Assembly (NCBI GenBank): GCA_964619725.1
Contig: CAZUFC010000112.1
Coordinates: forward strand, 1 to 25,671
Origin: an uncultured bacterium
Lineage (GTDB): Bacteria > CSSED10-310 > CAZUFC01
Length of the DNA stretch: 25,671 bases
Reading direction: 5' to 3'
The translations under genes and the position numbers were made by a program. Below, piece by piece: positions 502-23,580 of this stretch (position 1 is its first letter; each line of letters starts with the position of its first letter). Under the pieces are notes generated by a model. It did not search any database, was not told the origin of the DNA, and saw only the letters and a list, made by a program, of their open reading frames with translations.

Positions 502-2925
502 ATGGTTTTAATGCCGATAACGCGCTTTCTTCGTCTATTATTCTTTTTAGTTTTCGGATTCTCTTTATTCTTGATATTGAATGAAAAAGCAGCTCATAGT
601 GAAACTGCGATCCGGGACGAAGTGTACGTCGGACAGGGAAGTTATACGACCGAGTTGCCTTCAGGGTGTGAAATTCCCTCTGATTATGCAGGCGATCCGG
701 TGGGTCCATTAATTACAGAAAACATTACAGGTGCGGTTCCGACAAATGATTGGCATTCCTCTTTGGTTTGGGAATACTACCCCGGATACGCTCATTCTCT
801 GAATATGTATTCGCATCCTCTGGCGTTAAAAGCTTTTTCTTCTGGAGTTGGTCTGAGTTATCCCGCAGAACCGGCATTATTCATTCCACCTCCGCCTCCC
901 CACATCGGTGAATACCACTATTGTTACGACGAAGATTTAAGGCTCGGCGTAAGCGGATTGAATTCACCGGATACAAGACTTGATGATTATTCGGATTGGG
1001 TAATAACGGCGCAGTGGGATGACGGCACAAGAAGCCTGAAAGTTACCATGGGGCATGGAATCCCATTCGTTTATGCAGAAATATCGGGAGGCGATGCTCT
1101 GATCGCGTCGTCCTCTCCATTTGAAATTTGGCATAATGATGAAGGCACGATCGGCATGACAGTTAATGGACATCATTATGGGATATTTGCCCCTTATGGA
1201 TCAGTCTGGGCTGTATCGAATACTCTGCAATCTTCTTTGAACGATCAAGATTTCTTTTCAATTGCTATCCTGCCCGACGACGATTTGAACACTTTGCTTT
1301 ATTATCGGAAGAACGCCTACGCATTCATTCGCGAAACTGAAGTATCATGGACATATGATGAACAAAGCGCCGTTCTGACTACTTTTTTTAATATTTCAAC
1401 CGAACTTAAAGAAACAGGGCACGGAAACGTAAACCACGCTTTAATCGCACTCTATCCCCATCAATGGCTTCATTCGAACGAAATTTTGACGGACTATGAA
1501 TATGTATCGTCACGCGGGGTTATGAAGGTCTTCGAGGGTAATTCGTTCAGCACGAATTTGGTTTTCAACGGCATCTTACCGAACTTACCCGATATGGGAG
1601 GATATGATCCAGATATATTGTACGACTACGTTAACGAAGTTTATACCGCTTCAGGAAATTTGGATTTCCCGGATACCTATTGGGTCGGTAAGGCGATGAA
1701 TCGTCTCGCCATGTTGGTTCCGATCTCAGAACATGTCGATCACATTGCTGCAAGAGACTCCTTTTTGGATCAATTAAAGGTTAAATTGGAAGAGTGGTTT
1801 ACGGCAGGCGGGGACAGCGGTTTTTACTATGATGAAACCTGGGGCACCCTGATCGGTTGTCCGGCAAGCTTTAACTCAGGAAAAGAGCTTAATGATCATC
1901 ATTTTCACTACGGTTATTTCCTGCGTGCGGCGGCAACAATCGCCAGATATGATCCGGAGTGGGCCCAGCAGGAGAATTGGGGAGGTATGGTGAATCTGTT
2001 GATCAAGGATACGGCGAACTGGGAAAAAACTGATACTCAATTTCCATTCCTTCGTTATTTCGATCCCTATGCTGGACATAGTTGGGCTAACGGACCGGCA
2101 TGCTTTTCCGCCGGCAATAACCAGGAATCCTCCTCTGAAAGTCTTAATCACGCTGCTGCGATATTTTTATGGGGGGCTCTCACAGAAAATGTAACAGTGC
2201 GAGACTTGGGTATTTTTCTTTATGCCACTGAAGTCAGCGCAGTCGAACAATATTATTTCAACATTGATGGAAATGTTTTTCCGGAAAATTTTGATTTCAC
2301 GACTATCGGAATACTATGGGCCGATGGCGGTGCTTATGCCACATGGTGGACGAGTAATCCGGAAGAAATACACGGCATCAATTTTTTGCCTGTTACCGGA
2401 GGCTCCCTGTACCTCGGCAAAAATCCAGATTATATTCTAACGAATTATCAGGAAATGATCGATCATAACGGCGGTCCTGAAACAGAATGGGTGGACATTA
2501 TTTGGAGTTTTCTGGCGCTGAATGATGCCGGCGAAGCGTTGATTAAATTTGAAGAAAATTCTGATTATTTGCCTGAAACAGGAGAAAGCAAGGCCCATAC
2601 CTATCACTGGCTCAACAATTTGAATGATCTGGGTCGGCTAAAAACGGGCATCGCTTGCGATAGCCCCGCATATGCTGTTTACGAAAAAGAAGGAGAACTC
2701 GCTTATGCCGCTTTTAATCCAGGACCTGATGATCTAATAATTAACTTTTCGGACGGTGCACGTCTTTTTGTCCCTTCAAAAGAACTGGTCGTCGGCGACG
2801 GAACAGAGCCCATGCCTTCCCCCACTCCGACAATAACAATACCGGCGGACAATTCAATTTTTGCTGTTTCGATTATAATGACGTTATCGTTGATCCTGAA
2901 ATTCAGGAATGGAAAACAACGATGA
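502..2925 (+). CDS. Secreted GH81 endo-beta-1,3-glucanase with PT linker and C-terminal membrane anchor/sorting signal
   Basis: GH81 motifs PTNDWHSSL, ELNDHHFHYGYF, FDPYAGHSWANG, NQESSSE. ORF track starts at 352, but the signal peptide (RFLRLLFFLVFGFSLFLIL..AHS) follows ATG 502/511, so the start was moved. C-terminus PSPTPTITIPA + hydrophobic helix + KFRNGKQR. Confidence 0.93.
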   Translation: MVLMPITRFLRLLFFLVFGFSLFLILNEKAAHSETAIRDEVYVGQGSYTTELPSGCEIPSDYAGDPVGPLITENITGAVPTNDWHSSLVWEYYPGYAHSLNMYSHPLALKAFSSGVGLSYPAEPALFIPPPPPHIGEYHYCYDEDLRLGVSGLNSPDTRLDDYSDWVITAQWDDGTRSLKVTMGHGIPFVYAEISGGDALIASSSPFEIWHNDEGTIGMTVNGHHYGIFAPYGSVWAVSNTLQSSLNDQDFFSIAILPDDDLNTLLYYRKNAYAFIRETEVSWTYDEQSAVLTTFFNISTELKETGHGNVNHALIALYPHQWLHSNEILTDYEYVSSRGVMKVFEGNSFSTNLVFNGILPNLPDMGGYDPDILYDYVNEVYTASGNLDFPDTYWVGKAMNRLAMLVPISEHVDHIAARDSFLDQLKVKLEEWFTAGGDSGFYYDETWGTLIGCPASFNSGKELNDHHFHYGYFLRAAATIARYDPEWAQQENWGGMVNLLIKDTANWEKTDTQFPFLRYFDPYAGHSWANGPACFSAGNNQESSSESLNHAAAIFLWGALTENVTVRDLGIFLYATEVSAVEQYYFNIDGNVFPENFDFTTIGILWADGGAYATWWTSNPEEIHGINFLPVTGGSLYLGKNPDYILTNYQEMIDHNGGPETEWVDIIWSFLALNDAGEALIKFEENSDYLPETGESKAHTYHWLNNLNDLGRLKTGIACDSPAYAVYEKEGELAYAAFNPGPDDLIINFSDGARLFVPSKELVVGDGTEPMPSPTPTITIPADNSIFAVSIIMTLSLILKFRNGKQR

Positions 2926-3012
2926 ACGCAATTTCCTTAAAAAATTCTGAATGCCGCTCAGACTGCATCGGCGCCCATTCTGATTCTGCACGAATGATAA
3001 CAGCGAAATTTT

Positions 3013-3043
3013 ATTTGACGTGCCGTCAAATTCTTTTTATATT
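3013..3043 (+). promoter_or_regulatory. Sigma70-like promoter overlapping an 8-bp inverted repeat (possible terminator or operator)
   Basis: TTGACG (3015-3020) - 17 bp - TATATT (3038-3043), upstream of the AAGGAG RBS and ATG 3118. ATTTGACG-TGC-CGTCAAAT (3013-3031) is followed by TCTTTTT. Confidence 0.55.
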
Positions 3044-3117
3044 TATCTTTGAGAGAATAGAATTAAAAATCTGCAGAATTTCGGTAATATGATTTTTTCT
3101 TTTGAAAGGAGAACATC

Positions 3118-6100
3118 ATGAAAAAATTTTTCGTATTGTCTTTTCTGACGATCTTCCTGAGTTCTTTAGGTTTCAATTATTCGGTTCACTCACGATCCAA
3201 CGATATTAACGAAAAGATAGTTTTTCAATCTAACCGCGCTGAAACAACGGATGGCGACTGTTTTCACGTCTATTCAGAAACAGGTTCCGAACCGAAATGC
3301 CATTTTGAAGTCAATTGCGATATAGGAGCTTATGGGGAATTGGAAGAAGGGGGTTTAGATGAAACTGACCTGGGATGCGTATGTGAAGGTAACTTGTGCA
3401 TGCAAGCGAAGATTAATTTGCATCAGGAAGAGCATGCCGGCTGGTTTGTTCGAGCCGGTACTCTTGAGAATCATCAAACCCGGGATATGTCTGGCTTTGA
3501 AAACGGTTGTTTGATCTTTTGCTTGAAAAGTCCCGTTGACCTGGGCGTAGGAATTCGATCTTCTGATATACCGGAAGGGGAAGAAGAATCCAAAATAAAA
3601 CTGTCCGAACTGGGGATATTGCCGGACGACAGATGTCGGGAAATAATCATTCCATTAGATGAATTCAAATCCCGGGATGATCGGTTGGATTTTTCGCAAA
3701 TCGAAGTACTGTTCAATATTTATTCTGATCAGACCACCGGAGGGACAGGAGGACAAAATGTCATTTTTTACGTTGATAGTATTCAATGGTGTAGAGAATG
3801 TCCCGTTCCAACCGAGTCTGAGCTGGATTTTGAGCTTAATTTAAATCCTAAGCTGTATTGGCGTGACGATCATTTCTCTCTCAATGTAATAATTCATAAT
3901 GCAGGACAGGATATTCAAGCCGATATGCACGCTGCGCTGATTTTACCATCCGGTGAAATTCTGTTTTTACCGGATTTTACTGAGATTCCGACTCCAATGA
4001 GAAGATTTTATTATGGGGGGCAAACTTACAAAGAGAATTTACTTAATTTTGAGTGGGACTCGGATATGATTTTAGAGGGATTACAATTTGCAGGAGGGTT
4101 AACGTTTTTAGGAACATACTCGGTAATTGACTTCGATTCGGCGGTTTGGAGCTGCGGAAAATGTGAAATACCTACGCCGACGCCGACTCCGACGCCGTCC
4201 TTCACGCCGAATTGTTACGGCGTTTATTCAGAAACGATAACAGGATGCATCCTGGATGACACCTGCATGATCGGCATCTATCCCACACCAGAACAAATCC
4301 AAAATAACGACGGTTACATTGAACTTGAAGAAGTTGACGATACTTACTGCGAACCGGATTACAGCATGAAAGCGACGATCAATGTTCCGATGCCGGACAG
4401 CTTTGCCGGCTGGTTCGTCAGGGCGGGGACATTTGAAGAGCCCGATACTATCGACATGAGCGATTATGCTGACGGCAGTCTTTGGCTATGCGCCAGGTCC
4501 TCCTTTGAATTAGGCATAGGCATAAGATCTGCCGATATTGCTGCGAGCGATGAGGAATCATGGGTATTGCTGTCTGATTATATTCCCCTTGACGATGAAT
4601 GGCATGAATTCTGTGTACCTATTCCAACCTTCACAAATCTGGAAGATGAACTTGATTTGAGTCAGATGGAAGTGCTGTTTAACGTGTTTTCGAATTCAGA
4701 TACAGGCGGAACGGAAGGAGAAGAAATTTTCTGGATCGATAACGTACGGTGGTGTATCGAACCATGCCCTTATACTCCCACTCCCACCCGCACTGAAACA
4801 AACACGGAGACTTATACTCCAACAATTACTACAACTCCGACACCAATGATTACCGCAACTTGTTACGGCGTTTATTCCGAAACGATATCAGGGTGCAATT
4901 TGGATTCCACCTGTGTGATCGGAATCTATCCTACACCGGAAGGTACACACAAAAATGACGGCTACATTGAGCTAGAAGAGGTTGACGATACTTACTGCGA
5001 ACCGGATTACAGCATGAAAGCGACGATCAATGTTCCGATGCCGGACAGCTTTGCCGGCTGGTTCGTCAGGGCGGGGACATTTGAAGAGCCCGATACTATC
5101 GACATGAGCGATTATGCTGACGGCAGTCTTTGGCTATGCGCCAGGTCCTCCTTTGAATTAGGCATAGGCATAAGATCTGCCGATATTGCTGCGAGCGATG
5201 AGGAATCATGGGTATTGCTGTCTGATTATATTCCCCTTGACGATGAATGGCATGAATTCTGTATTCCTGTTCCTACATTCACCGACTTGGAGAACGAACT
5301 TGACTTAAGCCTGATGGAAGTCTTGTTTAATGTGTTTTCTAATTATGATACGGGCGGAACTGAAAGTGAAGAAAATTTCTGGATCGACAATATTCGATGG
5401 TGCAGCAGTCCCTGCCCTACTGTAACGCCGACCCCTATTACAACGATTACGCCGTACCCCTCAATATCTCCTTTACCTTCTTCAACGCACACTCCCGTAT
5501 TACAAGAATGTTACGGCGTATATTCCGAATCCGTACCGGGATGCATTTTCGAGACAACCTGCGATATTGGTTGTTATCAGGGACCAGGAAGCAGCATAGA
5601 ACTTGAAGAAGTCGGAGGAGCGTATCCATACATGCAAGCTGCCATAAATGTGCCCATGCCGGACGGTTATGCCGGGTGGTTCGTCCGTTGCGGAACTTTC
5701 GAGGAACCTGATACGCTCGATATGAGCGCTTATGCAGATGGAAGCCTTCGATTTACAGCCAGGACTGATGTCGAATTAGGCATCGGTATCCGTTCAGCGA
5801 ACATAGAACCGGGGGACGAAGAATCCAAGACGCTTCTTTCTGATTACATGCTCATTGATGGGCAATGGCATAGCGTATGCGTCCCTATTCCTTTATTCAC
5901 GGAATTGGAAGAAGACATTGAACTGAATCAAATGGAAGCGCTTTTTAATGTTTTCTCCAACTATGATACCGGCGGTACAAGCCGTCCGGAAGTCTTCTAC
6001 ATTGACGAAGTTGAATGGCGTCAAATCCCTTGCGGCTTTGATTCAGTGTCCGACAGGTATTGCCCCCACAGAAATTCAAACTCCTTAATTTCTGAAAGAA

Positions 6101-6582
6101 TGGCGAATGCTCCTCAGGACGACTCGCCGCTGAACATGATTACTCGGAAAACGAATCAAAAGAGCGAAAAAATGCTGTCTCGCCTGGAACATTTCAATCA
6201 GGATCAATATTCAGAAAATTCAATGCAATCGGAATACGAATCTCCCATTACTTTAGAAATATGCCTCAACCAACATCTCTTCTGGGAAAATGAAGAATTC
6301 CTCTTTGAAATTATGGCGCATAATGCTAATGACGATTTGGAAGTTGATTTGTATCTCTGGATCGAGATCGGGGACATCCTGCTCTTTTGGCCTGAATGGA
6401 ATGAGGAAATTCATTGTGAAAACCGCTTTATTGAAGCTTGTGGAACGCTGTCAGAGGAAATAATAAGGATTGCCTGGCCCGGCGATGCAACGGGAAATTT
6501 GACTATCTGCGCTTGCATGTTCTATTCAGGAGCTTTTGAACAAGCGAGCAATGTCGCATGCGATACATTCCGATTTGAATGA
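3118..6582 (+). CDS. Secreted multidomain protein: four Cys-rich ~180-aa CBM-like beta-sandwich repeats, PT linkers, two ~110-aa CTD-like domains; no catalytic domain recognised
   Basis: RBS AAGGAG; signal peptide MKKFFVLSFLTIFLSSL. Repeats at ~3259-3804, 4213-4770, 4861-5418 and 5509-6033 share AGWFVRxGT, D-M-S, LGxGIRS, [IM]ExLFNx[YF]S and F[WY][IV]DxxxW. Pro/Thr linkers lie between them. CBM function is inferred from the fold-like pattern and gene context. Confidence 0.8.
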   Translation: MKKFFVLSFLTIFLSSLGFNYSVHSRSNDINEKIVFQSNRAETTDGDCFHVYSETGSEPKCHFEVNCDIGAYGELEEGGLDETDLGCVCEGNLCMQAKINLHQEEHAGWFVRAGTLENHQTRDMSGFENGCLIFCLKSPVDLGVGIRSSDIPEGEEESKIKLSELGILPDDRCREIIIPLDEFKSRDDRLDFSQIEVLFNIYSDQTTGGTGGQNVIFYVDSIQWCRECPVPTESELDFELNLNPKLYWRDDHFSLNVIIHNAGQDIQADMHAALILPSGEILFLPDFTEIPTPMRRFYYGGQTYKENLLNFEWDSDMILEGLQFAGGLTFLGTYSVIDFDSAVWSCGKCEIPTPTPTPTPSFTPNCYGVYSETITGCILDDTCMIGIYPTPEQIQNNDGYIELEEVDDTYCEPDYSMKATINVPMPDSFAGWFVRAGTFEEPDTIDMSDYADGSLWLCARSSFELGIGIRSADIAASDEESWVLLSDYIPLDDEWHEFCVPIPTFTNLEDELDLSQMEVLFNVFSNSDTGGTEGEEIFWIDNVRWCIEPCPYTPTPTRTETNTETYTPTITTTPTPMITATCYGVYSETISGCNLDSTCVIGIYPTPEGTHKNDGYIELEEVDDTYCEPDYSMKATINVPMPDSFAGWFVRAGTFEEPDTIDMSDYADGSLWLCARSSFELGIGIRSADIAASDEESWVLLSDYIPLDDEWHEFCIPVPTFTDLENELDLSLMEVLFNVFSNYDTGGTESEENFWIDNIRWCSSPCPTVTPTPITTITPYPSISPLPSSTHTPVLQECYGVYSESVPGCIFETTCDIGCYQGPGSSIELEEVGGAYPYMQAAINVPMPDGYAGWFVRCGTFEEPDTLDMSAYADGSLRFTARTDVELGIGIRSANIEPGDEESKTLLSDYMLIDGQWHSVCVPIPLFTELEEDIELNQMEALFNVFSNYDTGGTSRPEVFYIDEVEWRQIPCGFDSVSDRYCPHRNSNSLISERMANAPQDDSPLNMITRKTNQKSEKMLSRLEHFNQDQYSENSMQSEYESPITLEICLNQHLFWENEEFLFEIMAHNANDDLEVDLYLWIEIGDILLFWPEWNEEIHCENRFIEACGTLSEEIIRIAWPGDATGNLTICACMFYSGAFEQASNVACDTFRFE
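4333..4614 (+). repeat. 282-bp direct repeat, copy 1 (identical to 4981-5262)
   Basis: Base-by-base reading from gttgacgatacttactgc to gaattctgt found no mismatch with the copy 648 bp downstream. Confidence 0.92.
4981..5262 (+). repeat. 282-bp direct repeat, copy 2 (identical to 4333-4614)
   Basis: Same comparison; the flanks on both sides diverge at many synonymous and non-synonymous sites. Confidence 0.92.
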
Positions 6583-6663
6583 GGCCGGGGAGGAAAAAAA
6601 TCAGCGGTCGTGATGATCGAAACTGAATAGATGCTTTATTGAATTCTCTCTTTGAATATGATG

Positions 6664-8526
6664 TCAGTTAGAATGATAACTGAATATCCAATCAGCAATA
6701 TTTCCGATCAAACGGTCGTTTTGGTCCAGAACAGCAGAATAAAAAAACAGATTATACAGTGATTCTTCAGTTTCGGGCCATTGGAATGGATTTATTATCT
6801 GCACTATTCCGTAACCGTTTTCGATGACTGCGATTTCTTCAAAATCAATAGCTGTTTCCCATCCGGGCCAGAAAAAGAATTCGCCGTAAACTTCCAAAAT
6901 CACGTATAAATAAACGTCGTTTAAACTTTCGCAACCATTGCAGAACAATGCGCTCAAATAACACTCGCTTCCCGGCGTAAAGGGACTCATCGGCATTTCT
7001 AATCCGGTAAGATAAATATCAGTTCCCGGTCTCATATTGCAATAAGCCTGTTCGACGGCGTAATATTGCAGTTTTTTATTACGATCTTTACTCATTATTC
7101 CCCATCCTTCTTCAGGAGCGCCGGGGTCCATTTTGTTCAACCAGGCGAAGGCGCATCCGCCTATAGTTAAACCTTTTGCCGCGCTGATGCCTTCCGTCCA
7201 CCGGATAGCGTAATCCTGAGCCCGTTCGCAATCGTCATATTGCGACCATTCAGTCGCCCACCATCCGTCGCAACCGTATTCAGTGAACAACAAAGGTCTG
7301 TCGTAATCCCATCCAGGATAATCGGCAATAACCTGTTCCGCTCCTTCATATGAATTGCAGCAATAAATATCCAGGGAAGGGGCATGTTGAATTATTGATT
7401 CGACCGGATTAAGTCCTGCAGCCGCATAACCTGCCGGATGGTTAGGATCAACCGCGTGTATGTTCATGCATTGCTCATTCAAAAATTCTGCGAAAGCGGT
7501 TTTATTTTCTTGAGTATCCGGTTGCAGGAATTCGAATACTTCGTTTCCTGCGATCCAACCCAATATGGCCGGATGATCCTTGTAACATTCGATGAAATTA
7601 GTCAAGGAGTATTCCACAGCCTGCCGGTATACTGAATCTGTATAATCCCTCGGAGGCGAATCCGGCCATTCGCTCCCCGTCAGAATCCAATACCCGGCCA
7701 GAACCTTTAATCCGGCTCCGTGCATTTCATCCAGCGCAGAAAAACTGATGTCGCCCTGTCCCCAGGTTCGAATAGTATTGCCGCATGCGTTTTTCACAAG
7801 TTGGAAGTCTCGCTCATAACAGCTTTCGTCTACTGAGTTATACCCGAATCCCCGGACAAACCATTCTTCATCATCAACAAGCAGTTGAAAATTCCGATTA
7901 GCGAGATTTCCCTGAATGGATACGGCAGATGGAATATCACCTGACCGGGGAAAAACCAACTTGATCTCATCAAAGTATATTTGAACTTCCCGGGATGCAT
8001 CAATCGTAAATCCGAATATGTTGTTGACTGAACTCAAATCATATTCCGATAACCCTTCTATAGTCATATCATGCCAGCTTTCATTAAGCGTAACGGTCCT
8101 GGAAACCTGATCGTCGAACATTACTATTTGGATATTTTCGTTCGCAGTGCCTCGAACAGAAAATTCGCATCGAACGCATCCGGAAAAATCAACCCCCGGA
8201 CCATCCCAATTTGATGCAGAATTCTGCATCCATATACCGTCCCAGTCGTTTTCACCAGTTATAACAACCTTTACGCAATAAACTCCTCCTCTTGGATTCT
8301 CAACACAATCAAAATTGATCGTTTTACCGCCCCCTGCCGACGGCGATCCCATAAAACCGCTCCACGGAAAAGCATGAATATCGTCGTATAAAAAAAGTCT
8401 CTTGTAGACCACAGATGTATTACAGGCTCGGTATCCCGGTTCGTTTTTTTCATTTGAAGCTTTCAAAAAACTGCCGCAAACCATAAAAAAAAGACACGAT
8501 GTAAATATCATCATTTTTGCTCTCAT
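6664..8526 (-). CDS. Secreted clan GH-A TIM-barrel glycoside hydrolase (GH2-like; GH157/GH158 beta-1,3-glucanase-like) with N-terminal CBM-like and C-terminal CTD-like domains
   Basis: NTIRTWG, YKDHPAILGWIAGNEV (acid/base NE), DPNHP, RPLLFTEYG (nucleophile E). Start moved to ATG 8526 (AAGGAG RBS, signal peptide MRAKMMIFTSCLFF..LKA). Exact GH family uncertain. Confidence 0.82.
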   Translation of the reverse strand: MRAKMMIFTSCLFFMVCGSFLKASNEKNEPGYRACNTSVVYKRLFLYDDIHAFPWSGFMGSPSAGGGKTINFDCVENPRGGVYCVKVVITGENDWDGIWMQNSASNWDGPGVDFSGCVRCEFSVRGTANENIQIVMFDDQVSRTVTLNESWHDMTIEGLSEYDLSSVNNIFGFTIDASREVQIYFDEIKLVFPRSGDIPSAVSIQGNLANRNFQLLVDDEEWFVRGFGYNSVDESCYERDFQLVKNACGNTIRTWGQGDISFSALDEMHGAGLKVLAGYWILTGSEWPDSPPRDYTDSVYRQAVEYSLTNFIECYKDHPAILGWIAGNEVFEFLQPDTQENKTAFAEFLNEQCMNIHAVDPNHPAGYAAAGLNPVESIIQHAPSLDIYCCNSYEGAEQVIADYPGWDYDRPLLFTEYGCDGWWATEWSQYDDCERAQDYAIRWTEGISAAKGLTIGGCAFAWLNKMDPGAPEEGWGIMSKDRNKKLQYYAVEQAYCNMRPGTDIYLTGLEMPMSPFTPGSECYLSALFCNGCESLNDVYLYVILEVYGEFFFWPGWETAIDFEEIAVIENGYGIVQIINPFQWPETEESLYNLFFYSAVLDQNDRLIGNIADWIFSYHSN

Positions 8527-8691
8527 TCTGACATTCTCCTTTCTTCTTTTTTCTAAAATGAAGATTAAAAAACAATCGGCAATTGTTAACACTCAAACGA
8601 CGCTGAAGTTTTTTCGATGCTTAGAAGTAGAATTTTTTCTTTTCAGAATTGGCGACACCCCTCTGACCGATAAGATGTTCCATCACTGAGA

Positions 8692-9234
8692 TTATGGAAC
8701 ATATACAATTCTCTGTAAATAGACGGTTCGAGCCTCTTGCTCCGTGAAAACCACCTCGGCGACTACATATAAATTTTCAAGATCAGCTGTGAAAAAATCA
8801 CTTAAAGGAAAAACGTAACTCGTCCAGGCATCAGTCAGAGTGATAGGTATTTTTGTTTCTTCACCATTGTCAGGATCGGCGACATCTTTAATGCCGATCT
8901 CGACGCACTCGCCTCCCGATTCTCCCCGCAACTCAACAGCTAATTTTTTGAAATCAGAAAAATCCTCCGAAGGTCGAGGCGGATCACTAACCGTACCGGT
9001 TACGAAAAATACAGAGCCCCACTCGCCGGAAGGATATGACATTTTCAGAAAACCTTCTTTTTCCTCAAGCCAGTTTGTATTGCCGGAAGAATGAGCTACG
9101 CCTATATCAAATCCCGGATATAGCATTCCTGAATAAATCCTGAATTCATCCTCTTCATCCGGTCCGACAGTTTGATTCAATGTGCAGCCCAGGCAGACCT
9201 GTAAAGTAAACAAAATTAAAAAAAACTTTTTCAT
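8692..9234 (-). CDS. Lipoprotein with a single CBM-like (galactose-binding-like/CBM11-like) domain
   Basis: Lipobox CLGC (Cys17); DFSDFKKLAVELRGESGGECVEIGIKD...LTDAWTSYVFPLSDF pattern; start shares base 9234 with the upstream stop (TAATG coupling). Confidence 0.75.
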   Translation of the reverse strand: MKKFFLILFTLQVCLGCTLNQTVGPDEEDEFRIYSGMLYPGFDIGVAHSSGNTNWLEEKEGFLKMSYPSGEWGSVFFVTGTVSDPPRPSEDFSDFKKLAVELRGESGGECVEIGIKDVADPDNGEETKIPITLTDAWTSYVFPLSDFFTADLENLYVVAEVVFTEQEARTVYLQRIVYVP

Positions 9235-10046
9235 TATTTACCTTCCTTCGTTATTACACGGGATGGAACACTTTTATTTCCTTTGAACAGACGATCATCC
9301 GAGTCCAATTTTTTGATTTTTCTTTGTTGCAAAATAGGCCGAGACGGCATGTCTGTAAAAGCAGGCAGCTCTTTACACCACCTTACATAATCTATCCAGA
9401 ATTCCGTCTCGCCGACCGTTCCTCCCGTTTCACTGTTGGAAAAAACGTTAAACAAAACTTTCATCTCAGATAATCTAAGTTCATCATCTTTTTCCAGGAA
9501 ATCGATTATCGGAATGCACAGTTCCTGCCATTCATCCTTAGGCTCCAGATAGTCCGAAATCAAAATCCAGGATTTTTCATTTCCCTCGTAAATATTATGG
9601 GAGCGTATTCCGATCCCAAATTCAATCGTTGATCGGAAGCAAAAACATAGATATCCGTTCCTGTATTCGTTCATGTCTATAGTGTCCGGCGTATCGAATA
9701 AACCACATTGAATAAACCAACCCGCCCATCCGTTGGGAAAGGGAACATTTAAGACAGTTTTCATGCTGTGATTCGGCTCGCAATATGTCCCGGAAGTTTC
9801 TTCTATTTCTATAGCGGCTTCTCCTCCACGGTATACTCCAATTTTACAATCCTCATTCAGATGACAACACGGTTCGTTCTGACTGTCTGAATAGAGTCCG
9901 AAACAATGTTCCTCGGTCTGTGTTTGAGTGGGAGCCGGATCAGGTTCTGTCGCGCATTCGTCGTCACATCCTATCAACGAACAGAAAAAAATCGCGGGAA
10001 TCATTAAGAAAAATTTAGGTTTTTTCATCGCTTTTTTGTATTTCAT
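9234..10046 (-). CDS. Lipoprotein with one copy of the Cys-rich ~180-aa repeat domain of the 3118-6582 protein
   Basis: Lipobox LIGC (Cys27); domain ~9375-9906 (YCEPNHSMK..AGWFIQCG..FGIGIRS..KVLFNVFSNSETGGT..FWIDYVRWC) aligns with the four repeats; GGAGG RBS and ATGA overlap with the upstream gene. Confidence 0.85.
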   Translation of the reverse strand: MKYKKAMKKPKFFLMIPAIFFCSLIGCDDECATEPDPAPTQTQTEEHCFGLYSDSQNEPCCHLNEDCKIGVYRGGEAAIEIEETSGTYCEPNHSMKTVLNVPFPNGWAGWFIQCGLFDTPDTIDMNEYRNGYLCFCFRSTIEFGIGIRSHNIYEGNEKSWILISDYLEPKDEWQELCIPIIDFLEKDDELRLSEMKVLFNVFSNSETGGTVGETEFWIDYVRWCKELPAFTDMPSRPILQQRKIKKLDSDDRLFKGNKSVPSRVITKEGK

Positions 10047-11017
10047 ATTCCTTTACCTCCCAGGAAAGTCGAACTTCTTATGCCAACAAGAACATCGCCT
10101 TCCGGTCTGTACGAAGGCACGTAATCCACGTTCGGCAAATACCAGACGTTTAAATACTCAATATAAGCAAAAATTTTTGTGGATTTTAAATTTACAGGAG
10201 TCCGACCTTCGTATAGGTTGAATCTCAAACCCGGTCCGTACTTAATGAAATTATTGAAATCAACGTCGTTCCAAGCGCATTCCTGGTAAGCATCCCATTT
10301 CAGTTCCGTTCTGTAATACAAGGAGAAACTTTTATATTGCATGCCCGCTGACGGCGAGAATCCCAGAATGCTGAAATTTTCCTTCTCCTTTACGAAAAAA
10401 TTAGTTCTCGAATAGGAGAATCCGATCGAAATTTCCAACCACCAGTTTCTCCAGGATAATTTTTGTTTTTCATGCCTCCCTTTTAAAAATATCCAGGATT
10501 CAAATCCGTACTTTACATCATAATCCGGCCGGTGACCCGTATAGCTCTCAACATTCGGTAAATAATCGATCTTCAGATATTCGGCAAAAACATTTGTCGT
10601 GAATGTTTCCAGTCTCCTGACAGGTTTTGACGCAATCTGCAACCGTACTCCTCCCCCATAAACAATATTGTTGTTCCAATCATTGTCGTTCCACGGTTCG
10701 TTCGTCCCGAAATCCTTTATTACTTTGAATTTTACGTATGGATTGAACGAGGCATTAATGGAGCTTTTTCCTTTCGGAAATGTCGTCAACTTCATGCCCG
10801 CCTGCATTTCTATCTTTCCCAGAAAATAATCCTCATAATCCTCCACGTAAAAATCGTTCCGGCTCCAACCTAAGTCGGTCTCTATTTCCCACCACCATTG
10901 TTCGTGTATTTTCAGTCCGGACATTGTTTCCTCTGCTTGCAGCGTCGAAATTATCAGGGGATGAAGGCAAATGAATATAATTAAGACAAGTTTTGTTCTT
11001 AAATGATTCATCAACAT
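10043..11017 (-). CDS. Putative outer-membrane beta-barrel protein with a two-fold internal repeat
   Basis: AAGGAGG RBS before ATG 11017; signal peptide ending LQA|EE; alternating aromatic/hydrophobic strands; halves share WWxEI, WNDxDxNNxIxYGxGxR, EYLxxxYLPNV and RPxxDVxxG. It lacks a terminal Phe, so the barrel call is inferential. Confidence 0.62.
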   Translation of the reverse strand: MLMNHLRTKLVLIIFICLHPLIISTLQAEETMSGLKIHEQWWWEIETDLGWSRNDFYVEDYEDYFLGKIEMQAGMKLTTFPKGKSSINASFNPYVKFKVIKDFGTNEPWNDNDWNNNIVYGGGVRLQIASKPVRRLETFTTNVFAEYLKIDYLPNVESYTGHRPDYDVKYGFESWIFLKGRHEKQKLSWRNWWLEISIGFSYSRTNFFVKEKENFSILGFSPSAGMQYKSFSLYYRTELKWDAYQECAWNDVDFNNFIKYGPGLRFNLYEGRTPVNLKSTKIFAYIEYLNVWYLPNVDYVPSYRPEGDVLVGIRSSTFLGGKGI

Positions 11018-11281
11018 GCGATTCCTCCTTAATTGACCGATCATGACTGACCGAAATTTACTTAATTTATTGAAGACTTTGAAATCAATCACGTTTTTCG
11101 AAATTTTCATATCTGAGTCCACCGAGAGAAAAAATTATAAAAATGATCTCTATGCCGGCTCTGTGATTCTCAGAATCAAAAAATTTAATCTCCTTAGAAA
11201 AAAAATTCCTACTTTTTTGGTGTTGATAACCGTTCACCAAAATACACATGCTCGAACAGATTACAAAATTTTTCCTCTTCT

Positions 11282-14509: not shown

Positions 14510-16456
14510 ATGTTCAATTCTATAAGAGTTAAAAAAATGTGTTTTGTCCCGCTCCTGTTGACCGCCTTTTTGGGTTGTGCGGCAAAAACCGAGCCAGCAA
14601 TTAAAAAAACAAATGGAAGAAACTCCGACGCAGAAAATTCAAAAGCTGTAATGGAGAAATCCCCGGAAGAAAAAGGATATGCCCATCTAAACGAGGTCAT
14701 GGATAAGCATCAGGAAAAGTTCTACGTATACCTGGACGGATACGAGGCCGGAAACCGGTTCATCCCTTCGGGTTGGATGGGCGACTACGGAGATATTATT
14801 TTCGATGAAGCCTGGACCAAAAATCCTCATTCCGGAAGCTCCTGCACGATGATCACCTACCTGGCGGAGGGTTATCAGAAAGAGTATTGGGCCGGCATAT
14901 ACTGGCAATCGCAAAATGATAACTGGGGCGAACAGCCGGGATATCCCCTGCAAGATGCAGATAAAGTGATATTCTGGGCCAGAGGCGCTCACGGAGGCGA
15001 GCGAATAGAGTTTAAAGCCGGAGGCATCAACCGACCTCCATATAATAATGACGAGAAACCATACAGTGATTCCTTCGGACCGGTCAGCACAGGCATAACA
15101 ACGTTAAGAAAAAAATGGACTCGATACGAAATAGACCTTTCTAAAGAAAACCTTAATTCAGTCATAGGAGGGTTCTGCTGGGTTACGAACAAAAGAGAAA
15201 ATCCGAAGGGCTGCACGTTTTATCTTGATGACGTTTACTACAATAAGTCGAACCTGGATGAATTAAGGTTTCTGGTCAGTTATGAACTGCCGTCGATACC
15301 CGAATACAAAGCCCTCAAAAACGTGGCGTTTGTATACGATAATGCACTGGTCATTCTGGCGTTCTTAGCGCGTGGAACGAAAGAAGATATTCGCAGGGCC
15401 GCCTTATTGGCCGATGCAGCCGTGTACGCTCAAAGAAACGACCGTTTTTTCTGCGAAGAAAAATACGACGGAAGATTGAGGAATGCCTACAGGGCGGGTC
15501 CGCTAGTCGATCCCTTCAGTAAAGAAGCTCTGCTGCCGGGTTGGATGGATAGGGCGGATGAGAAATGGTACGAGGATAAATTTAACGTTTCTACGCATAC
15601 GGGAAACGTCGCCTGGATGATGATCGCATTGCTGGATTATTATGATGCGAGCAGAAATGAAAAATACCTTGCGGCTGCAGAACAAATGGGAAAGTGGATT
15701 CATCAGAATTGTTTCGATGATTACGGATTCGCCGGATATACGGGCGGTTATGAAGGTTGGGAACCGGACGAAAATAATCCGGAAGGCCAGGAAAAATTGC
15801 TGTGGAAATCTACAGAACACAACATTGACGTCTATGTCGCTTTTATGCGTTTGTTTCAACAGACCGGCGATTCCAAATGGAAAGAATGGGCCCTGCATGC
15901 AAAAAAATTCGTGGAGTCGATGTGGAACCATGAAGACGGCCATTTTTGGACGGGGACTCAGAAAAAATGCGCTGAAACAACCGAATACGTTAATAAGGGG
16001 CCTATTCCGTTAGACGTTAATACCTGGGCTGTTATGGCGCTTGGAAACGTCAGTAAATACGGCAGGGGAATTGAATTTATCGAAAAAAAATGCAAGGTGA
16101 CCGATTCTTCTGAAGAATCCTGTCAGGGTTACAAGGGATTCGATTTCAACGACGATAAAGACGGAATCTGGTTTGAAGGTACAGCCCAGGCATGCATAGC
16201 CTACCAGATAATGAATGACGATCAAATCGCGGATAATTACCTCGACCAACTGAGAAAAGTCCAGAAAGAGGCAAAATACGGCAATGGGAAAGGAATTATT
16301 GCCGCCTGCAAGGAAGACCTTACCACTGGTTTCGATTGGATATATTTCGACCGGCTGCATATAGGCGCCACAGCATGGTTTCTCCTGGCCGAACAAGAGT
16401 ATAATCCTTACTGGGGTATAAAAACTGATTCGCCCATCCCCTTTGAAGATTTGTAA
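14510..16456 (+). CDS. Lipoprotein: CBM-like N-terminal domain + (alpha/alpha)6 six-hairpin glycosidase-like domain
   Basis: Lipobox FLGC (Cys23). N-domain FIPSGWMGD..WAGIYWQ..NWG..FWARGAHGGERIEFKAGG..FYLDDVYY resembles the N-domain of the GH-A protein. Helical barrel motifs YDNALVILAFL, TGNVAWMMIALL, KSTEHNID, PLDVNTWA, DGIWFEGTAQ. Confidence 0.78.
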   Translation: MFNSIRVKKMCFVPLLLTAFLGCAAKTEPAIKKTNGRNSDAENSKAVMEKSPEEKGYAHLNEVMDKHQEKFYVYLDGYEAGNRFIPSGWMGDYGDIIFDEAWTKNPHSGSSCTMITYLAEGYQKEYWAGIYWQSQNDNWGEQPGYPLQDADKVIFWARGAHGGERIEFKAGGINRPPYNNDEKPYSDSFGPVSTGITTLRKKWTRYEIDLSKENLNSVIGGFCWVTNKRENPKGCTFYLDDVYYNKSNLDELRFLVSYELPSIPEYKALKNVAFVYDNALVILAFLARGTKEDIRRAALLADAAVYAQRNDRFFCEEKYDGRLRNAYRAGPLVDPFSKEALLPGWMDRADEKWYEDKFNVSTHTGNVAWMMIALLDYYDASRNEKYLAAAEQMGKWIHQNCFDDYGFAGYTGGYEGWEPDENNPEGQEKLLWKSTEHNIDVYVAFMRLFQQTGDSKWKEWALHAKKFVESMWNHEDGHFWTGTQKKCAETTEYVNKGPIPLDVNTWAVMALGNVSKYGRGIEFIEKKCKVTDSSEESCQGYKGFDFNDDKDGIWFEGTAQACIAYQIMNDDQIADNYLDQLRKVQKEAKYGNGKGIIAACKEDLTTGFDWIYFDRLHIGATAWFLLAEQEYNPYWGIKTDSPIPFEDL

Positions 16457-18092: not shown

Positions 18093-20318
18093 TTATACGG
18101 GTATTTCAGACGCCAGGGCTTTCTGCGCGGCCGTTTTCATGTCGCCTGCTCCGGCCAGGGTGACTTCAGAAGGCAATCTCAAAAGTATGGTTGGCGCAAC
18201 CACAACAGAAAAATCTCTAACTTTCTCAGTTCGCCAGTAACCCTTTTCACGGATCGATTTCTCGATGGCTTTTCTCAATTCATGACGTATATTTTTTTCC
18301 TCTTCCATAGTCGAGACAGTCCTTAATTTCATCTCAGAAACTTTAAGTTTCGCATATTCCTTGGCGAAAAGGAGCAGCTGGTACATAGATTGCTTTGACA
18401 ATACAAGAGACCAGTCGCTTGTTCGATTAGCCCTCCTGTATAGGGCTTCAGGTACCGCTGAACTTGATAGAAGCATGGCTTGACGGTGGCGCTGAAGCTT
18501 TATTTCTTCCTTATCCGTTTCTTTTTCGCCAGGTTTGTCTGTTCTGTTTTTTGTAATCAGAATATCTAAACCCGGATCATGAACAAATACAGATGGAACA
18601 TCCAGCTTCTTGGCCAGGTGTTTTGCTCTCAGATAAACACCTATATTGCGTTCTCCCGGTTTAGGCGATATCCAAATGCTATAGGGTGATCCGTATTCGC
18701 TTGTTATCTGGTAAAGGTCCTGTCTGTTGATGCCGATTCCCTTAAGTTTTCCTTTCTGAAAAATGGGTTGTAAATTATCCAGCGTTTTTCCGTCCAGGAA
18801 CTTTGAAATCTCAAAACGCGTGTTGGCGCCCGCATCAGCCAACGCTTTTAGTTGATTAGTCAACGCCTCCCGCAACAATGACGTCAGCTTTTCGTTGAAT
18901 ACAATTTTTCCCATTTGATCTATTCCTCCCAACATGGCCGATCTCATCTGCTCCGCAAACGGTTTCAGTTCATCGTAATTCACCAATTCGATCGATATGA
19001 TTTCTTCCGCTGCATCGTATTCGTATTCATGCTGAAAAAGGTAAAATATCGGCCAGAATTCGCTGTTCGACCATAAAGGATCGGATATACTGCTTTTATC
19101 CGTTTCAACATACCAGCATGATGCATCATTATCCCAATCAGGCGAATTCTGCTTATCGGACCATCTGTAGTTTTTATCCGCCTTCCAACAGACTCTGATC
19201 TTTTTCCAGGGCTTCGCAGGATCGACAAAAGGCTCCGGCTTTACAAAAATAACCCGGTCCGCAGAAAGACGGTCCTGCTCGATTACTTTATGCAAATTCA
19301 AACGAGGCCATAACCCGTTTTCAGACATCAAATTCATCACAAAACTCGCTCTTCGAGGATCGCCGCTTTTGCCGGATGCCTTTGCAGACTCTATGTGACC
19401 TCCTTCCTGGTTGAATATGAGTCTTTCGGCGCAATCAGGGAATATTGCAGCCTGTTTACTGCTGTGATAGGGAATGTGCACCAGCGTTTTAAATCCCATT
19501 TGCCTGTAAAGGTATGCCTGATTTCCCGCAGCGCCTCCCAATGTCTTGAATACCTTTATAAATTCACCGACATATCTTTTCAAGACGGTTTCCATTTGCT
19601 CACTTTTATTTCCGAATTTATCTTCTGAAAAAGAAGTTTCGGAAATTTGATTCTCAAATATGATGTGAAGCAAATCCTGCAGTTTCTTATCACCTATATG
19701 CGGGTTTAATCCTTCACGCCTCATCAAGCAGATTATACAGGCAAGCAGGTCTATTCCATCAAGAACGCTTTTGTCCAGAGGCTCCTCGTCACTGTTCAAA
19801 GATGCTGCCGCCCTTTTTTCAGCTTCCCGGTAAACATCCTCCGGCTTTAGTCCTTCCCACGCTGGAATAATCTCAACTAAAAAATTCATCACATCTTGAG
19901 TCAATCTTATGCTCAAATCTTCAACCGCTGAAAATCCGCAAAATCGGTACTTATCGTCGAGTTTGTAATTTATCGCTGCATACAGGTATCTGTGCCAATC
20001 TATTAGTTTTTTGGCGTCCTCCAGTTTTTCGGGAATTACTTGCTTCAGTTCCTCTATCCACCAGAATGACGATCTCAAAAGAGTTTCTAAATAATCAATA
20101 AATAAATCAGGAAGATCGTCAGGATTCAGCGCGCGCTTCAGGCATTCGTGAATTTCTTCGTTTATATTCGATTGGTCGATTTCGTGGAATAAAAGGAAAT
20201 TCTTAACCAACTCGTAACGCTTATTCAGCAATCCGCGCTCATTAACTTTCTTCTTAAATTTCTCATTCATATGCTCATTCGCTTCACATCCCTTTTCTTC
20301 TCTATATTTATTGACCAT
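18093..20318 (-). CDS. ADP-dependent glucokinase/phosphofructokinase-like protein (ribokinase superfamily), enlarged and divergent
   Basis: LGGAAGNQA (GG motif), GIGINRQDL (NxxE position), VVAPT..TLAGAGD (anion hole/catalytic Asp) near the C-terminus. Start moved to ATG 20318, which has a GGAGG RBS. Confidence 0.72.
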   Translation of the reverse strand: MVNKYREEKGCEANEHMNEKFKKKVNERGLLNKRYELVKNFLLFHEIDQSNINEEIHECLKRALNPDDLPDLFIDYLETLLRSSFWWIEELKQVIPEKLEDAKKLIDWHRYLYAAINYKLDDKYRFCGFSAVEDLSIRLTQDVMNFLVEIIPAWEGLKPEDVYREAEKRAAASLNSDEEPLDKSVLDGIDLLACIICLMRREGLNPHIGDKKLQDLLHIIFENQISETSFSEDKFGNKSEQMETVLKRYVGEFIKVFKTLGGAAGNQAYLYRQMGFKTLVHIPYHSSKQAAIFPDCAERLIFNQEGGHIESAKASGKSGDPRRASFVMNLMSENGLWPRLNLHKVIEQDRLSADRVIFVKPEPFVDPAKPWKKIRVCWKADKNYRWSDKQNSPDWDNDASCWYVETDKSSISDPLWSNSEFWPIFYLFQHEYEYDAAEEIISIELVNYDELKPFAEQMRSAMLGGIDQMGKIVFNEKLTSLLREALTNQLKALADAGANTRFEISKFLDGKTLDNLQPIFQKGKLKGIGINRQDLYQITSEYGSPYSIWISPKPGERNIGVYLRAKHLAKKLDVPSVFVHDPGLDILITKNRTDKPGEKETDKEEIKLQRHRQAMLLSSSAVPEALYRRANRTSDWSLVLSKQSMYQLLLFAKEYAKLKVSEMKLRTVSTMEEEKNIRHELRKAIEKSIREKGYWRTEKVRDFSVVVAPTILLRLPSEVTLAGAGDMKTAAQKALASEIPV

Positions 20319-20379
20319 CCCTTCCTCCCTGTGCCGGTTATAACTCAATAAAGCATCAATAGACGGTTTTTAAAAAAAA

Positions 20380-21111
20380 CTACTCCTCCGTCTCAAAAGG
20401 CTGAACAGCTCTCCTGGCCGAAATCCTTAAATTTTCCGAGGCCTCCTCATCTTTAATGATGCTCTTCAACGTATTCAGTATCTTCTTCGCATCCGCACTT
20501 AATCGCGACTTACGACCGCCTCTGGTTCGTACCGAACCGCGCGTCCGGATAACTCCGCCCGTCGGAATTGTCGACCTTGCCGACATATCGGCCAAATCAC
20601 CCAACGCCTCTATCGCTGAATATCTTATTCCCTCAGTGGGGCCGTTCTTTGCGTAATCCTGTAAAATTCCGACTGCCTTCGGTCCGCCTATCCTTCTTAA
20701 AGAATCTATTGCCGCTGATATTACATCTTCATCATAGGTCTCTAGCTGTCCTGCGCCCATTCTACTTTTTATATCCTCTAATGCCGTTCCTATAATCGAT
20801 ACAGACTTCTCATCGCCCCACTCTCCCAGAGCTGAAATCACTTCCTTCTTTACCTCCGGACCCCTCTTATCCAAAGCTTCCAATACCGTTTCCATCGCCT
20901 CTTCCTCCATGTCCGAAGGAAAACGGCTCCCCGCAGGCTGATTGATCGTTCCCCTCGTCCTTATCGAACCTCTTGTCCTTATGCCGTGATAACCTAATCG
21001 CGATGCAGCGCTTGCAGCCTTCTCATCCGTCTTGCTCCTTCTCAACCTTTCCAGCCACATTTTTATCTCATAACGGTCAACTTGTTCATTGGAATTATTT
21101 TGTGTTACCAT
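20380..21111 (-). CDS. HEAT-repeat protein with four [IV]RTRG motifs
   Basis: HEAT/PBS-lyase-like repeats EVKKEVISALGEWGD, VISAAIDSLRRIGGPKAV, IRYSAIEALGDL; IRTRGSIRTRG and IRTRGSVRTRG; AAGGAG RBS before ATG 21111. Confidence 0.88.
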   Translation of the reverse strand: MVTQNNSNEQVDRYEIKMWLERLRRSKTDEKAASAASRLGYHGIRTRGSIRTRGTINQPAGSRFPSDMEEEAMETVLEALDKRGPEVKKEVISALGEWGDEKSVSIIGTALEDIKSRMGAGQLETYDEDVISAAIDSLRRIGGPKAVGILQDYAKNGPTEGIRYSAIEALGDLADMSARSTIPTGGVIRTRGSVRTRGGRKSRLSADAKKILNTLKSIIKDEEASENLRISARRAVQPFETEE

Positions 21112-21324
21112 TAAATTTTCTCCTTTCCAGTTTTTCAAATTTAACTTAAGTCCTTTGACTTCGATCTGTCAACATTTTTTTGACCGGCGAAGCCCTATCG
21201 AATTCTTACATCAATTTGCTCAATCATTTAAAATGATTTTCACGTTAATCTCCTTTACGATGTTTTCGTTTTTACTCTTTTCAACGTCCTTCCTTTTCTT
21301 CGCCCGACGCCTCCCTTAAAGCGT

Positions 21325-23249: not shown

Positions 23250-23469
23250 TCACAGCCTGAACGGATTCTTATGAAAACTACGACGGCGATCATCGAAGAT
23301 TATTATACCGGCGCAACCCTTCTGCCGTCATCTTGCGACGCATGCACGCGCCGCTGGACAGGGCTCTCCTGGTCAAACCGATACACGGTTCAATTCTCTG
23401 CCGATTGCTTCCCTCCCGCTTACCCCGCACGTTTCATGAAAAAAAATTCAAAAAAATTCGCTTTTACTG

Positions 23470-23498
23470 TTGCAATTCGCGAAAACCCCGGTTATAAT
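23470..23498 (+). promoter_or_regulatory. Sigma70 promoter upstream of the small ORF and sigma-factor gene
   Basis: TTGCAA (23470-23475) - 17 bp - TATAAT (23493-23498), with an A-tract UP-like region upstream. Confidence 0.7.
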
Positions 23499-23500
23499 AA

Positions 23501-23515
23501 TAAACGTATAGACGT
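23501..23515. promoter_or_regulatory. Putative operator over the predicted transcription start
   Basis: TAAACGTATAGACGT is 14/15 identical to 21325-21339; contains GTATAGAC and overlaps the dyad AACGT-N4-ACGTT. Confidence 0.55.
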
Positions 23516-23580
23516 TCAAACCTTTTGGGGACGTCCCGAGTGAAAAGAGATGCCCGTTATCGCAAATGAAAGGAAAACCG

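Follow-up and report, generated by a model that had tools for sequence, protein, structure and literature searches.

Recent work has shown that modules in which a protease activates an effector are widespread in the immunity and signalling of bacteria; most of their substrates are unknown. Among the closest described systems, LcCaspase cuts a neighbouring alpha/beta-hydrolase effector, LcHydrolase, at Arg73 and Arg117; according to the accessible text of the report (PMC12642450, bioRxiv 2025), the R|G at these sites is conserved in 161 homologues and two protomers of the LcCaspase tetramer were modelled onto both of them. A strict requirement for Arg at P1 is given in the available part of the report on a type IV Thoeris caspase (10.1101/2024.10.24.620036). 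In Haliangium ochraceum, as far as the accessible text describes it, SAVED-CHAT activates PCaspase, which in turn cleaves the products of two genes adjacent to that of a toxic kinase, one a sigma-linked protein and the other a small inhibitor (10.1101/2023.06.23.546230), while in the Craspase-Csx30-CASP-sigma and CalpL-CalpT-CalpS systems a protease cuts an anti-sigma-like protein and so frees a sigma factor of the extracytoplasmic function (ECF) type (PMC12642450; 10.1101/2023.06.23.546230). The present analysis concerns a stretch of 25,671 nucleotides (nt) from an uncultured bacterium of the lineage CSSED10-310 (contig CAZUFC010000112.1 of assembly GCA_964619725.1, positions 1 to 25,671, hereafter the window), which carries a gene for a small HEAT-repeat protein with two tandem Phi-R-x-R-G loops (Phi, hydrophobic), followed by a gene for a kinase-like protein, here called K, and by a gene for a protein with a caspase-like CHAT domain.

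The window resembles the LcCaspase/LcHydrolase pair, within what the accessible text covers, in that a caspase-like gene lies beside a partner with two separate conserved R|G sites, and in that sensor domains (STAND, repeats) are fused to the protease or encoded beside it. Unlike LcHydrolase, where the protein that is cut is the zymogen of the effector, the HEAT protein is a solenoid without enzymatic function, and a conserved gene of its own next door encodes the enzyme; moreover, each HEAT site is a tandem pair of units, and its cleavage is something that we infer. The available description of the Haliangium gene cluster (PCc-sigma, PCi, PCk) is likewise matched by two CHAT genes, an ECF sigma gene, the HEAT gene and a kinase-like gene, but in place of the CI-2-like PCi and the Ser/Thr protein kinase PCk the window has the HEAT protein and a protein similar to ADP-dependent phosphofructokinase (PFK)/glucokinase, and no CRISPR or SAVED part is present in the window.

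The explanation that we favour, and to which we give an even chance, is that the HEAT protein is a protease-cleavable regulatory subunit, or safety catch, of the enzyme encoded downstream, the two loops being Phi-R-x-R|G cut sites. A cleavable HEAT component, a kinase-like partner and an explicit cut site would be candidate new parts in a known design of protease-controlled effectors and regulators. The candidate cut site lies on a separate regulatory protein and not on the effector itself, and an effector like an ADP-dependent sugar kinase is of a kind not yet linked to protease-effector systems. The features of the window to which the text refers are given in Table 1.

Table 1. Positions of the HEAT gene, its motif loops and neighbouring genes in the window (aa, amino acids; ORF, open reading frame).
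Feature	Position	Strand	Basis or remark
HEAT-repeat protein with two tandem Phi-R-x-R-G loops	20380..21138	-	ORF, Pfam, family alignment A5, AlphaFold2 model
Loop 1 tandem motif IRTRGSIRTRG	20950..20982	-	residues 44-54 of P0001; most conserved element of the family
Loop 2 tandem motif IRTRGSVRTRG	20518..20550	-	residues 188-198 of P0001
Partner K, 751 aa, ADP-dependent PFK/glucokinase-like (ribokinase superfamily)	18093..20348	-	starts 31 nt past the HEAT stop codon
CHAT protein (CHAT430), 430 aa	16480..17772	-	Pfam CHAT E 2.6e-8; 320 nt downstream of K, same strand
Solute-binding (SBP)-transmembrane (TM)-CHAT protein, 924 aa	11654..14428	+	Pfam SBP_bac_8 1.4e-12, CHAT 7.3e-8; Cys839 in MLVFSACYIGGS
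Pup-ligase (PafA/Dop) homologue, 551 aa	21594..23249	+	Pfam Pup_ligase E 9e-86; divergent from the HEAT gene
ECF-type sigma factor, 503 aa, N-terminal extension of about 300 aa	23844..25355	+	NCBIfam sigma70-ECF E 2.5e-14

The HEAT ORF comprises 252 aa when read from a TTG start, while the corresponding database protein, P0001, has 243 aa and begins at an ATG at position 21111, which is probably the start that is used. The protein belongs to the Pfam families HEAT_2 (PF13646; E 5.8e-14, 52.6 bits against a cut-off of 27.7) and HEAT_PBS (PF03130; E 3.7e-07, 30.4 bits against a cut-off of 20.9) by score and by its alpha-solenoid fold. It shares the repeat type and the fold with PBS-lyase-type HEAT proteins such as NblB, unlike which it has terminal hairpins, two motif loops and a gene context that are specific to its family; identity with NblB itself (NCBIfam NF045915) was rejected at 33.1 bits versus an equivalog cut-off of 300. 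PADLOC 2023 contained no model for any window protein except for a weak generic HEAT match, and none of the papers found gave the literal VRTRG or IRTRG motif in a relevant context.

Re-translation agreed exactly, in coordinates and in codons, with the original prediction, made from the letters of the window, that four [IV]RTRG units occupy two HEAT loops. The reverse complement of loop 1 reads ATA AGG ACA AGA GGT TCG ATA AGG ACG AGG GGA and that of loop 2 ATC CGG ACG CGC GGT TCG GTA CGA ACC AGA GGC. The four 15-nt units have 8-12 of 15 bases in common; the sole repeat at the DNA level consists of the adjacent 18-nt units of loop 1 (78% identity), and a comparison of loop 1 with loop 2 of the gene revealed none. 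The claim that the peptide rather than the DNA is conserved was borne out in the family: the 20 family members of alignment A5 yielded 63 units which, having been gathered by the R-x-R-G pattern, all carry R-x-R-G.

Analysis of the complete 9.17 Mb genome to which the window belongs excluded chance as the origin of the tandem motif, since the 270 RTRG found in 18.35 million residues of six-frame translation should, by our arithmetic, give only about 0.05 RTRG pairs within 12 residues genome-wide, against those observed: both HEAT loops, one protein encoded on contig C195 and one DNA tandem repeat on contig C37. A relaxed scan ([IVLM]RxRG-x(0-3)-[IVLM]RxRG) of the frames of at least 100 aa in this genome recovered only the two HEAT loops and the C195 protein, that is, three sites in two proteins. 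In the C37 repeat, at about 45009-45060, one frame contains three or four copies of ALRTRGSCF, and the repeat is probably unrelated to the protein motif.

A word-indexed search returned one homologue of the HEAT protein, P0002 (40% identity), which keeps IRTRGSVRTRG in loop 1 and carries three units in loop 2. A scan with a degenerate DNA pattern of one genome per species, which is not a census, returned at least 118 stretches, mostly noise; among the matches listed only L068 (a metagenome-assembled genome of the Pirellulaceae), L077 (a Xenococcaceae cyanobacterium) and L040 looked real, the first two being members of the family. GC-rich DNA repeats were rejected as noise among the same listed matches. 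Another false-positive class was the 'IRTSGEIRTSGF' stretch in L026, L030, L035, L045 and other loci, which was matched because the degenerate pattern also permits Ser and whose genes we take to be undecaprenyl-diphosphate-synthase genes. Nine further loci of the HEAT family (L154-L162) came from a metagenome scan. When 1.84 billion representatives were searched with a profile of alignment A2, the best 150 matches were mostly giant multi-HEAT proteins and eight were small full-length relatives. The strict motif pattern gave one real match in 401 cyanobacterial genomes, and the A5 profile found no relative in viral contigs. A second tandem match in genome G041, a Pirellulaceae genome (contig C64), was discarded; its frame contains no gene, and a control with the reversed pattern gave matches at the same level.

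Alignment A5 comprises 20 members with 25-50% identity to the window protein and has nine invariant columns only, three of which are R45, R53 and G54 of loop 1 (20/20), while T46, R47, G48 and R51 are conserved in at least 90%. Two strict x-R-x-R-G units occupy loop 1 in 18 of the 20 members, at a spacing of six residues in 17 and of five in one, and further conserved residues (A..SRFP) follow this tandem. Loop 2 holds at least one unit in 12 of the 20 members and two or more in nine. As judged from these alignments, the motif is the best-conserved feature of a rare HEAT family whose members, of 160-270 aa, are spread across phyla. Among the 63 units, V (43 units) and I (10) prevail at the first (P4) position; the middle (P2) position holds T in 49, V in seven and otherwise C, I, M, F or G, and the Gly is followed by A in 27 units, by S in 15 and by G in eight. 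The core of the motif is thus read as hydrophobic-R-x-R-G with a dispensable Thr, and a phospho-Thr site is unlikely because the middle residue varies.

The invariance of Arg and Gly and the basic character of the units are consistent with loops that bind nucleic acids or other polyanions in the manner of RGG motifs, or that are Arg-modification sites for the neighbouring kinase-like or phosphodiester-glycosidase-like enzymes; the second version may also draw on the small-molecule chemistry encoded next door, K being sugar-kinase-like and the alternative partner X, described below, weakly NAGPA-like. RGG motifs do not have the hydrophobic first residue and the fixed register seen here, the HEAT loci share no conserved domain related to nucleic acids, and neither version has a precedent in the literature found, so that we regard this explanation as very improbable, the least probable of those considered here.

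The AlphaFold2 model of P0001, built with alignment A5, has ten helices, a mean predicted local distance difference test score (pLDDT) of 86.8 and a predicted template modelling score (pTM) of 0.85. An N-terminal hairpin (13-25, 29-46), a HEAT core (66-180) and a C-terminal hairpin (206-220, 226-240) are separated by residues 47-65 and 181-205, which lack secondary structure and have a block pLDDT of about 70 and 57-63, respectively. The second unit of loop 1 and the whole of loop 2 lie in these non-helical stretches, and both loops are predicted to be flexible, exposed linkers between confident helices, in agreement with the earlier placement of the motifs in loops between HEAT helices. A Foldseek search with the model returned only generic alphaRep, HEAT and armadillo solenoids, the best being alphaRep and designed HEAT proteins with E about 4e-5.

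Several of these observations would equally suit the main rival explanation, which we consider unlikely: that the tandem loops are docking or pseudosubstrate elements and not cut sites, an extended or hairpin segment with an Arg face binding to an acidic or phosphate-binding pocket of the partner enzyme, or to the groove of the HEAT solenoid, so that the complex is held together or autoinhibited. The fixed six-residue spacing and the conserved flank of loop 1 (A..SRFP) suggest a structured interface, and they exceed the needs of a simple cut site. The pLDDT of loop 1 is intermediate and not that of a fully disordered segment, and designed armadillo proteins in complex with (KR)n and (RR)n peptides are among the solved structures nearest in fold. 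The spacing and the flank weigh against the favoured reading of the loops as cleavable sites, as does the first unit of loop 1 (residues 44-48), which is modelled as the end of helix 29-46, and so do some of the gene context data given below.

Analysis of the gene context of thirteen HEAT-family genes in twelve loci revealed that a K gene lies directly downstream of the HEAT gene on the same strand in seven cases, namely in the window (751 aa), L150 (739 aa), L154 (743 aa), L157, L158, L159 and L161. An eighth case is the second HEAT gene of L154, with one gene in between. In three further cases (L077, L156 and L160) the next gene on the same strand codes for a protein of another family, X, so that K or X is found downstream of 11 of the 13 HEAT genes. 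Locus L162 is too short to show the gene that follows, and in L155 a full homologue of pyruvate kinase (922-2655, PK barrel E 4e-87) comes after the HEAT gene in the place of K or X. This conserved kinase-like partner was absent from the account that the original prediction gave of the locus.

Identification of K as ADP-dependent PFK/glucokinase-like rests on several comparisons. The window protein carries a GGAAGN motif and a C-terminal GAGD motif, the latter G-A-G-D being invariant in all seven K sequences. Against a cut-off of 27 for the Pfam family ADP_PFK_GK (PF04587), the window protein falls short with 22.1 bits and the L150 copy passes with 36.2 bits. The K family profile matched the ADP-dependent phosphofructokinase 6c8z of the PDB with E 3.7e-8, and the Atlas score of K to ADP_PFK_GK clusters was 0.93. 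The window K is 31% identical to that of L150 and 45% to the gene downstream of HEAT in L154. An AlphaFold2 model of the 751 aa protein, made from a seven-row alignment, had a pLDDT of 51, which is too low for a comparison of folds. With the K profile, members of the family were detected in one of 14 genomes of the phylum of the window and, with three candidates scored per genome, in one of 301 genomes of the order of G041; the module of HEAT protein and partner is rare and patchy.

The X proteins have about 330-540 aa and match Pfam NAGPA weakly in three of six members (best E 0.0011). Genes for X also follow K in L154 and L159 and precede the HEAT gene in L161; none was found in the genome of the window. 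The families X and K are unrelated, and X as a possible relative of CHAT430 was likewise rejected by comparison. A maximum-likelihood tree of 20 HEAT proteins showed three clades that correspond to the partner types K1 (support 80/97), K2 (100/100) and X (100/97). Mapping of the partner labels onto the tree required four changes, the minimum possible, and none of 200 shuffles was as good. Since the HEAT tree splits by partner type, the HEAT protein and the downstream enzyme evolve as a unit.

That the partner is steadier than the protease (see below) and that the HEAT tree follows its type are points in favour of docking. The motif is, however, alike in the K and X groups although K and X are unrelated, and the motif recurs in two proteins, described below, that have no K or X gene nearby. 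Docking also leaves without explanation the enrichment of caspase-like genes beside the HEAT genes.

All ORFs of 110 aa or more that lie up to 7 kb from a HEAT gene were compared with Pfam. A CHAT or peptidase C14 gene was found within this distance in five of the seven loci of at least 6 kb (the window, L157, L159, L160 and L161); co-occurrence of RTRG-HEAT homologues with CHAT genes had been named in the original prediction as a test. None was found in the five short loci (1.1-4.4 kb), which are too short to tell, giving five of 12 overall. In L157 a TPR-CHAT protein is encoded at the end of the HEAT-K operon, in L159 a C14-NACHT protein and in L160 a CHAT-STAND protein near the HEAT gene, and in L161 two TPR-CHAT proteins, one on each side of the HEAT module; the order HEAT, K, CHAT on one strand is seen in the window, L157 and L161. 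The genome of the window holds about 14 CHAT genes, so spaced that a CHAT match is no further than 7 kb away for 1.6% of its positions. The binomial probability of at least five protease-near loci among seven is 3e-5 even with a background of 7%, a value that overstates the significance because related loci are not fully independent. A motif-bearing genome without CHAT genes, which had been named beforehand as a counter-case, was not met with, both other genomes checked holding many (about 11 and 35).

In the window, CHAT430 is the candidate for the protease that acts on the HEAT protein; its HIAAHN and FMNCPHS are possible catalytic motifs, and one weak homologue of it was found. The 924 aa protein with solute-binding, transmembrane and CHAT parts is a candidate second protease. 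Of the features of a substrate of such proteases, a protease gene in the locus is present in five of the 12 loci, and the family has a conserved Arg at the putative P1 position, with a small residue after it, in an exposed loop. The idea of a protease substrate, which the original prediction had put forward, is supported by this context because protease genes are enriched and described caspase-like proteases cut after Arg, one of them at R|G. The [IV]RTR|G sequence also resembles the VRPR and LxSR|G types of site that plant metacaspase 9 and MALT1 prefer.

Other parts of the survey speak against that idea, and the original interpretation is supported in part. The long loci L150 (a Pirellulaceae genome) and L154 have no protease recognisable by Pfam within 7 kb. 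The genomes concerned are rich in CHAT genes. When compared with each other by BLAST, the CHAT proteins encoded near HEAT genes prove distant or unrelated and do not form one orthologous group, so that diverse proteases would have to recognise one very specific site.

According to the favoured reading, the HEAT protein would control the enzyme encoded downstream, the ADP-PFK/glucokinase-like protein here and the X family in other lineages, to which it would bind. The tandem units in both exposed linkers would serve as sites for Arg-specific CHAT or C14 proteases of the same loci, switched on by a sensor part, that is, by TPR repeats, by a STAND NTPase or, in the window, by a periplasmic solute-binding domain. 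Once activated, the protease would cut both loops, the N- and C-terminal hairpins would detach from the HEAT core, and the activity of the partner enzyme would change. If this is true, the HEAT protein would represent a novel class of inhibitor that is inactivated by cleavage, an [IV]RTR|G peptide would be a ready substrate for uncharacterised CHAT proteases, and a search for the motif would provide a route to further substrates such as the C195 protein.

This 299 aa protein is unrelated to HEAT and consists of two HxxxCxxC motifs, a linker that contains VIRTTGAIRTRGAVRTRG and a C-terminal part of beta-sandwich-like appearance. Its gene directly follows an ECF sigma gene. Pfam zf-HC2 did not score and no homologues of the protein were found; the arrangement nevertheless fits a zinc-finger anti-sigma factor. 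The C195 ECF sigma factor and the sigma factor of the window are paralogues (25% identity, E 2e-11). A further copy of the cassette, VVRARGAVRTRGAIRTRG, is present in the helix-turn-helix protein of L040, a Planctomycetota contig. The cassette therefore appears to be portable, and in recurring in linkers of unrelated regulators it looks as a protease site would. In the C195 protein a protease of the same kind might release the ECF sigma factor.

Such a release would probably follow the logic of Craspase-Csx30 and CalpL-CalpT in the form in which the accessible parts of the reports give it (PMC12642450; 10.1101/2023.06.23.546230). The HEAT protein differs from Csx30 and CalpT, as described there, in having no anti-sigma domain, in not usually standing beside a sigma gene and in showing no sequence relationship to them. 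The suggestion that the HEAT protein might itself be a cleavable anti-sigma factor was not upheld: Pfam and NCBIfam scans found no anti-sigma domain (e.g. zf-HC2) in it, a sigma gene lies near HEAT only in the window among the 12 HEAT loci, and the conserved partner is a kinase-like enzyme.

The genome of the window has only two genes of the Pup-ligase family, and each lies near one of its only two tandem-motif proteins: the one in the window is divergent from the HEAT gene, and that of C195 is two genes upstream of the anti-sigma-like protein. It could be that the cassette in this genome is a recognition element of a PafA/Dop-like enzyme or of an AAA+ partner, so that regulators of ECF sigma factors would be tagged and degraded, an explanation that we hold to be improbable. 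Beyond the pairing itself, it finds agreement in that each pair adjoins one of the two paralogous ECF sigma factors, that the C195 set adds an Mpa-like AAA ATPase, a JAB peptidase and a ThiF-type E1, and that a C-terminal Glu or Asp occurs in ten of the 20 HEAT family members. PafA chemistry acts on C-terminal Glu and on Lys, and neither Glu nor Lys is present in the motif. The other 11 HEAT loci contain no Pup-ligase gene among the scanned ORFs, genome G042 gave no Pup-ligase match and G041 gave matches on other contigs only, and seven Pup-ligase regions from five other genomes carry no tandem RTRG. The pairing of Pup ligase and cassette is thus kept as a lineage-specific association.

Both mechanisms could also act in one circuit, to which we assign a similarly low probability: CHAT proteases would cut the cassette in the HEAT protein and in the anti-sigma factor, and the PafA/Dop-like enzymes would recognise the cassette, or the new ends left by cleavage, and attach a tag by which an Mpa-like AAA+ unfoldase takes up the fragments. 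A single signal would then release the kinase-like effector and fire the pair of ECF sigma factors, and the circuit would be the first link of caspase-like cleavage to Pup-like tagging outside Actinobacteria.

Pup is a small disordered protein that ends in GGQ or GGE and is encoded with PafA/Dop. The HEAT protein was rejected as a modifier of the Pup or ubiquitin type; it is confidently folded, ends in FETEE and has an adjacent Pup-ligase gene only in the genome of the window. An ORF of 90 aa (23271-23543) after the Pup-ligase gene of the window ends in GRPE and has no family match, and the window Pup-ligase homologue contains one single ARIRG, at residue 478. On contig C195, locus L002 (279-11301, minus strand) is an operon-like row coding for a weak RING-like protein, a ThiF-type E1, proteins of 179 and 311 aa of no known kind, a JAB peptidase, an Mpa-like AAA ATPase with a proteasomal-ATPase OB domain, a Pup-ligase homologue of 632 aa, an ECF sigma factor of 274 aa and the 299 aa VIRTTGAIRTRGAVRTRG protein. 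By its gene content L002 looks like a ubiquitin-like and Pup-like tagging set wired to a sigma/anti-sigma pair. In L020 (about 11974, contig C448 of genome G002) an Mpa-like AAA ATPase gene with an adjacent Pup-ligase homologue encodes a lone FRTRGSG just past Walker B, a single unit that is probably a coincidence.

The acidic C-terminus of the HEAT family follows Leu-x in ten of the 20 A5 members, with the endings FETEE, HLEE, PLAE, PLTE, DLGE, QLDE, RLDE, KLDD and LSQE, the first being that of the window protein (20380-20400). These termini recall the EEVD tails that dock on TPR domains, and genes for TPR-CHAT, TPR and HSP70 proteins are frequent neighbours of the HEAT family genes.

Genes for STAND NTPases, TPR proteins and HSP70 pairs lie beside the HEAT genes in L154, L159, L160 and L077, and such neighbours are typical of protease-effector conflict systems. 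The HSP70 pairs, one canonical and one divergent, are upstream of the HEAT modules in L154 (5271-9672) and L160 (2061-6002), where they adjoin STAND or CHAT-STAND genes. Locus L154 further contains a STAND NTPase and GrpE, and its divergent HSP70 copy carries TPR repeats.

The remaining part of the window (352-11122 and 14510-16456) codes for secreted proteins of glycoside-hydrolase-like appearance, and a repeated module of about 190 aa (CYGVYSE...GWFVRAGTFEEPDT...) is common to the two encoded at 3118-6582 and 9234-10046. Because these secreted proteins occur together with the solute-binding-CHAT protein, the gene content hints that the locus may serve polysaccharide sensing rather than phage defence.

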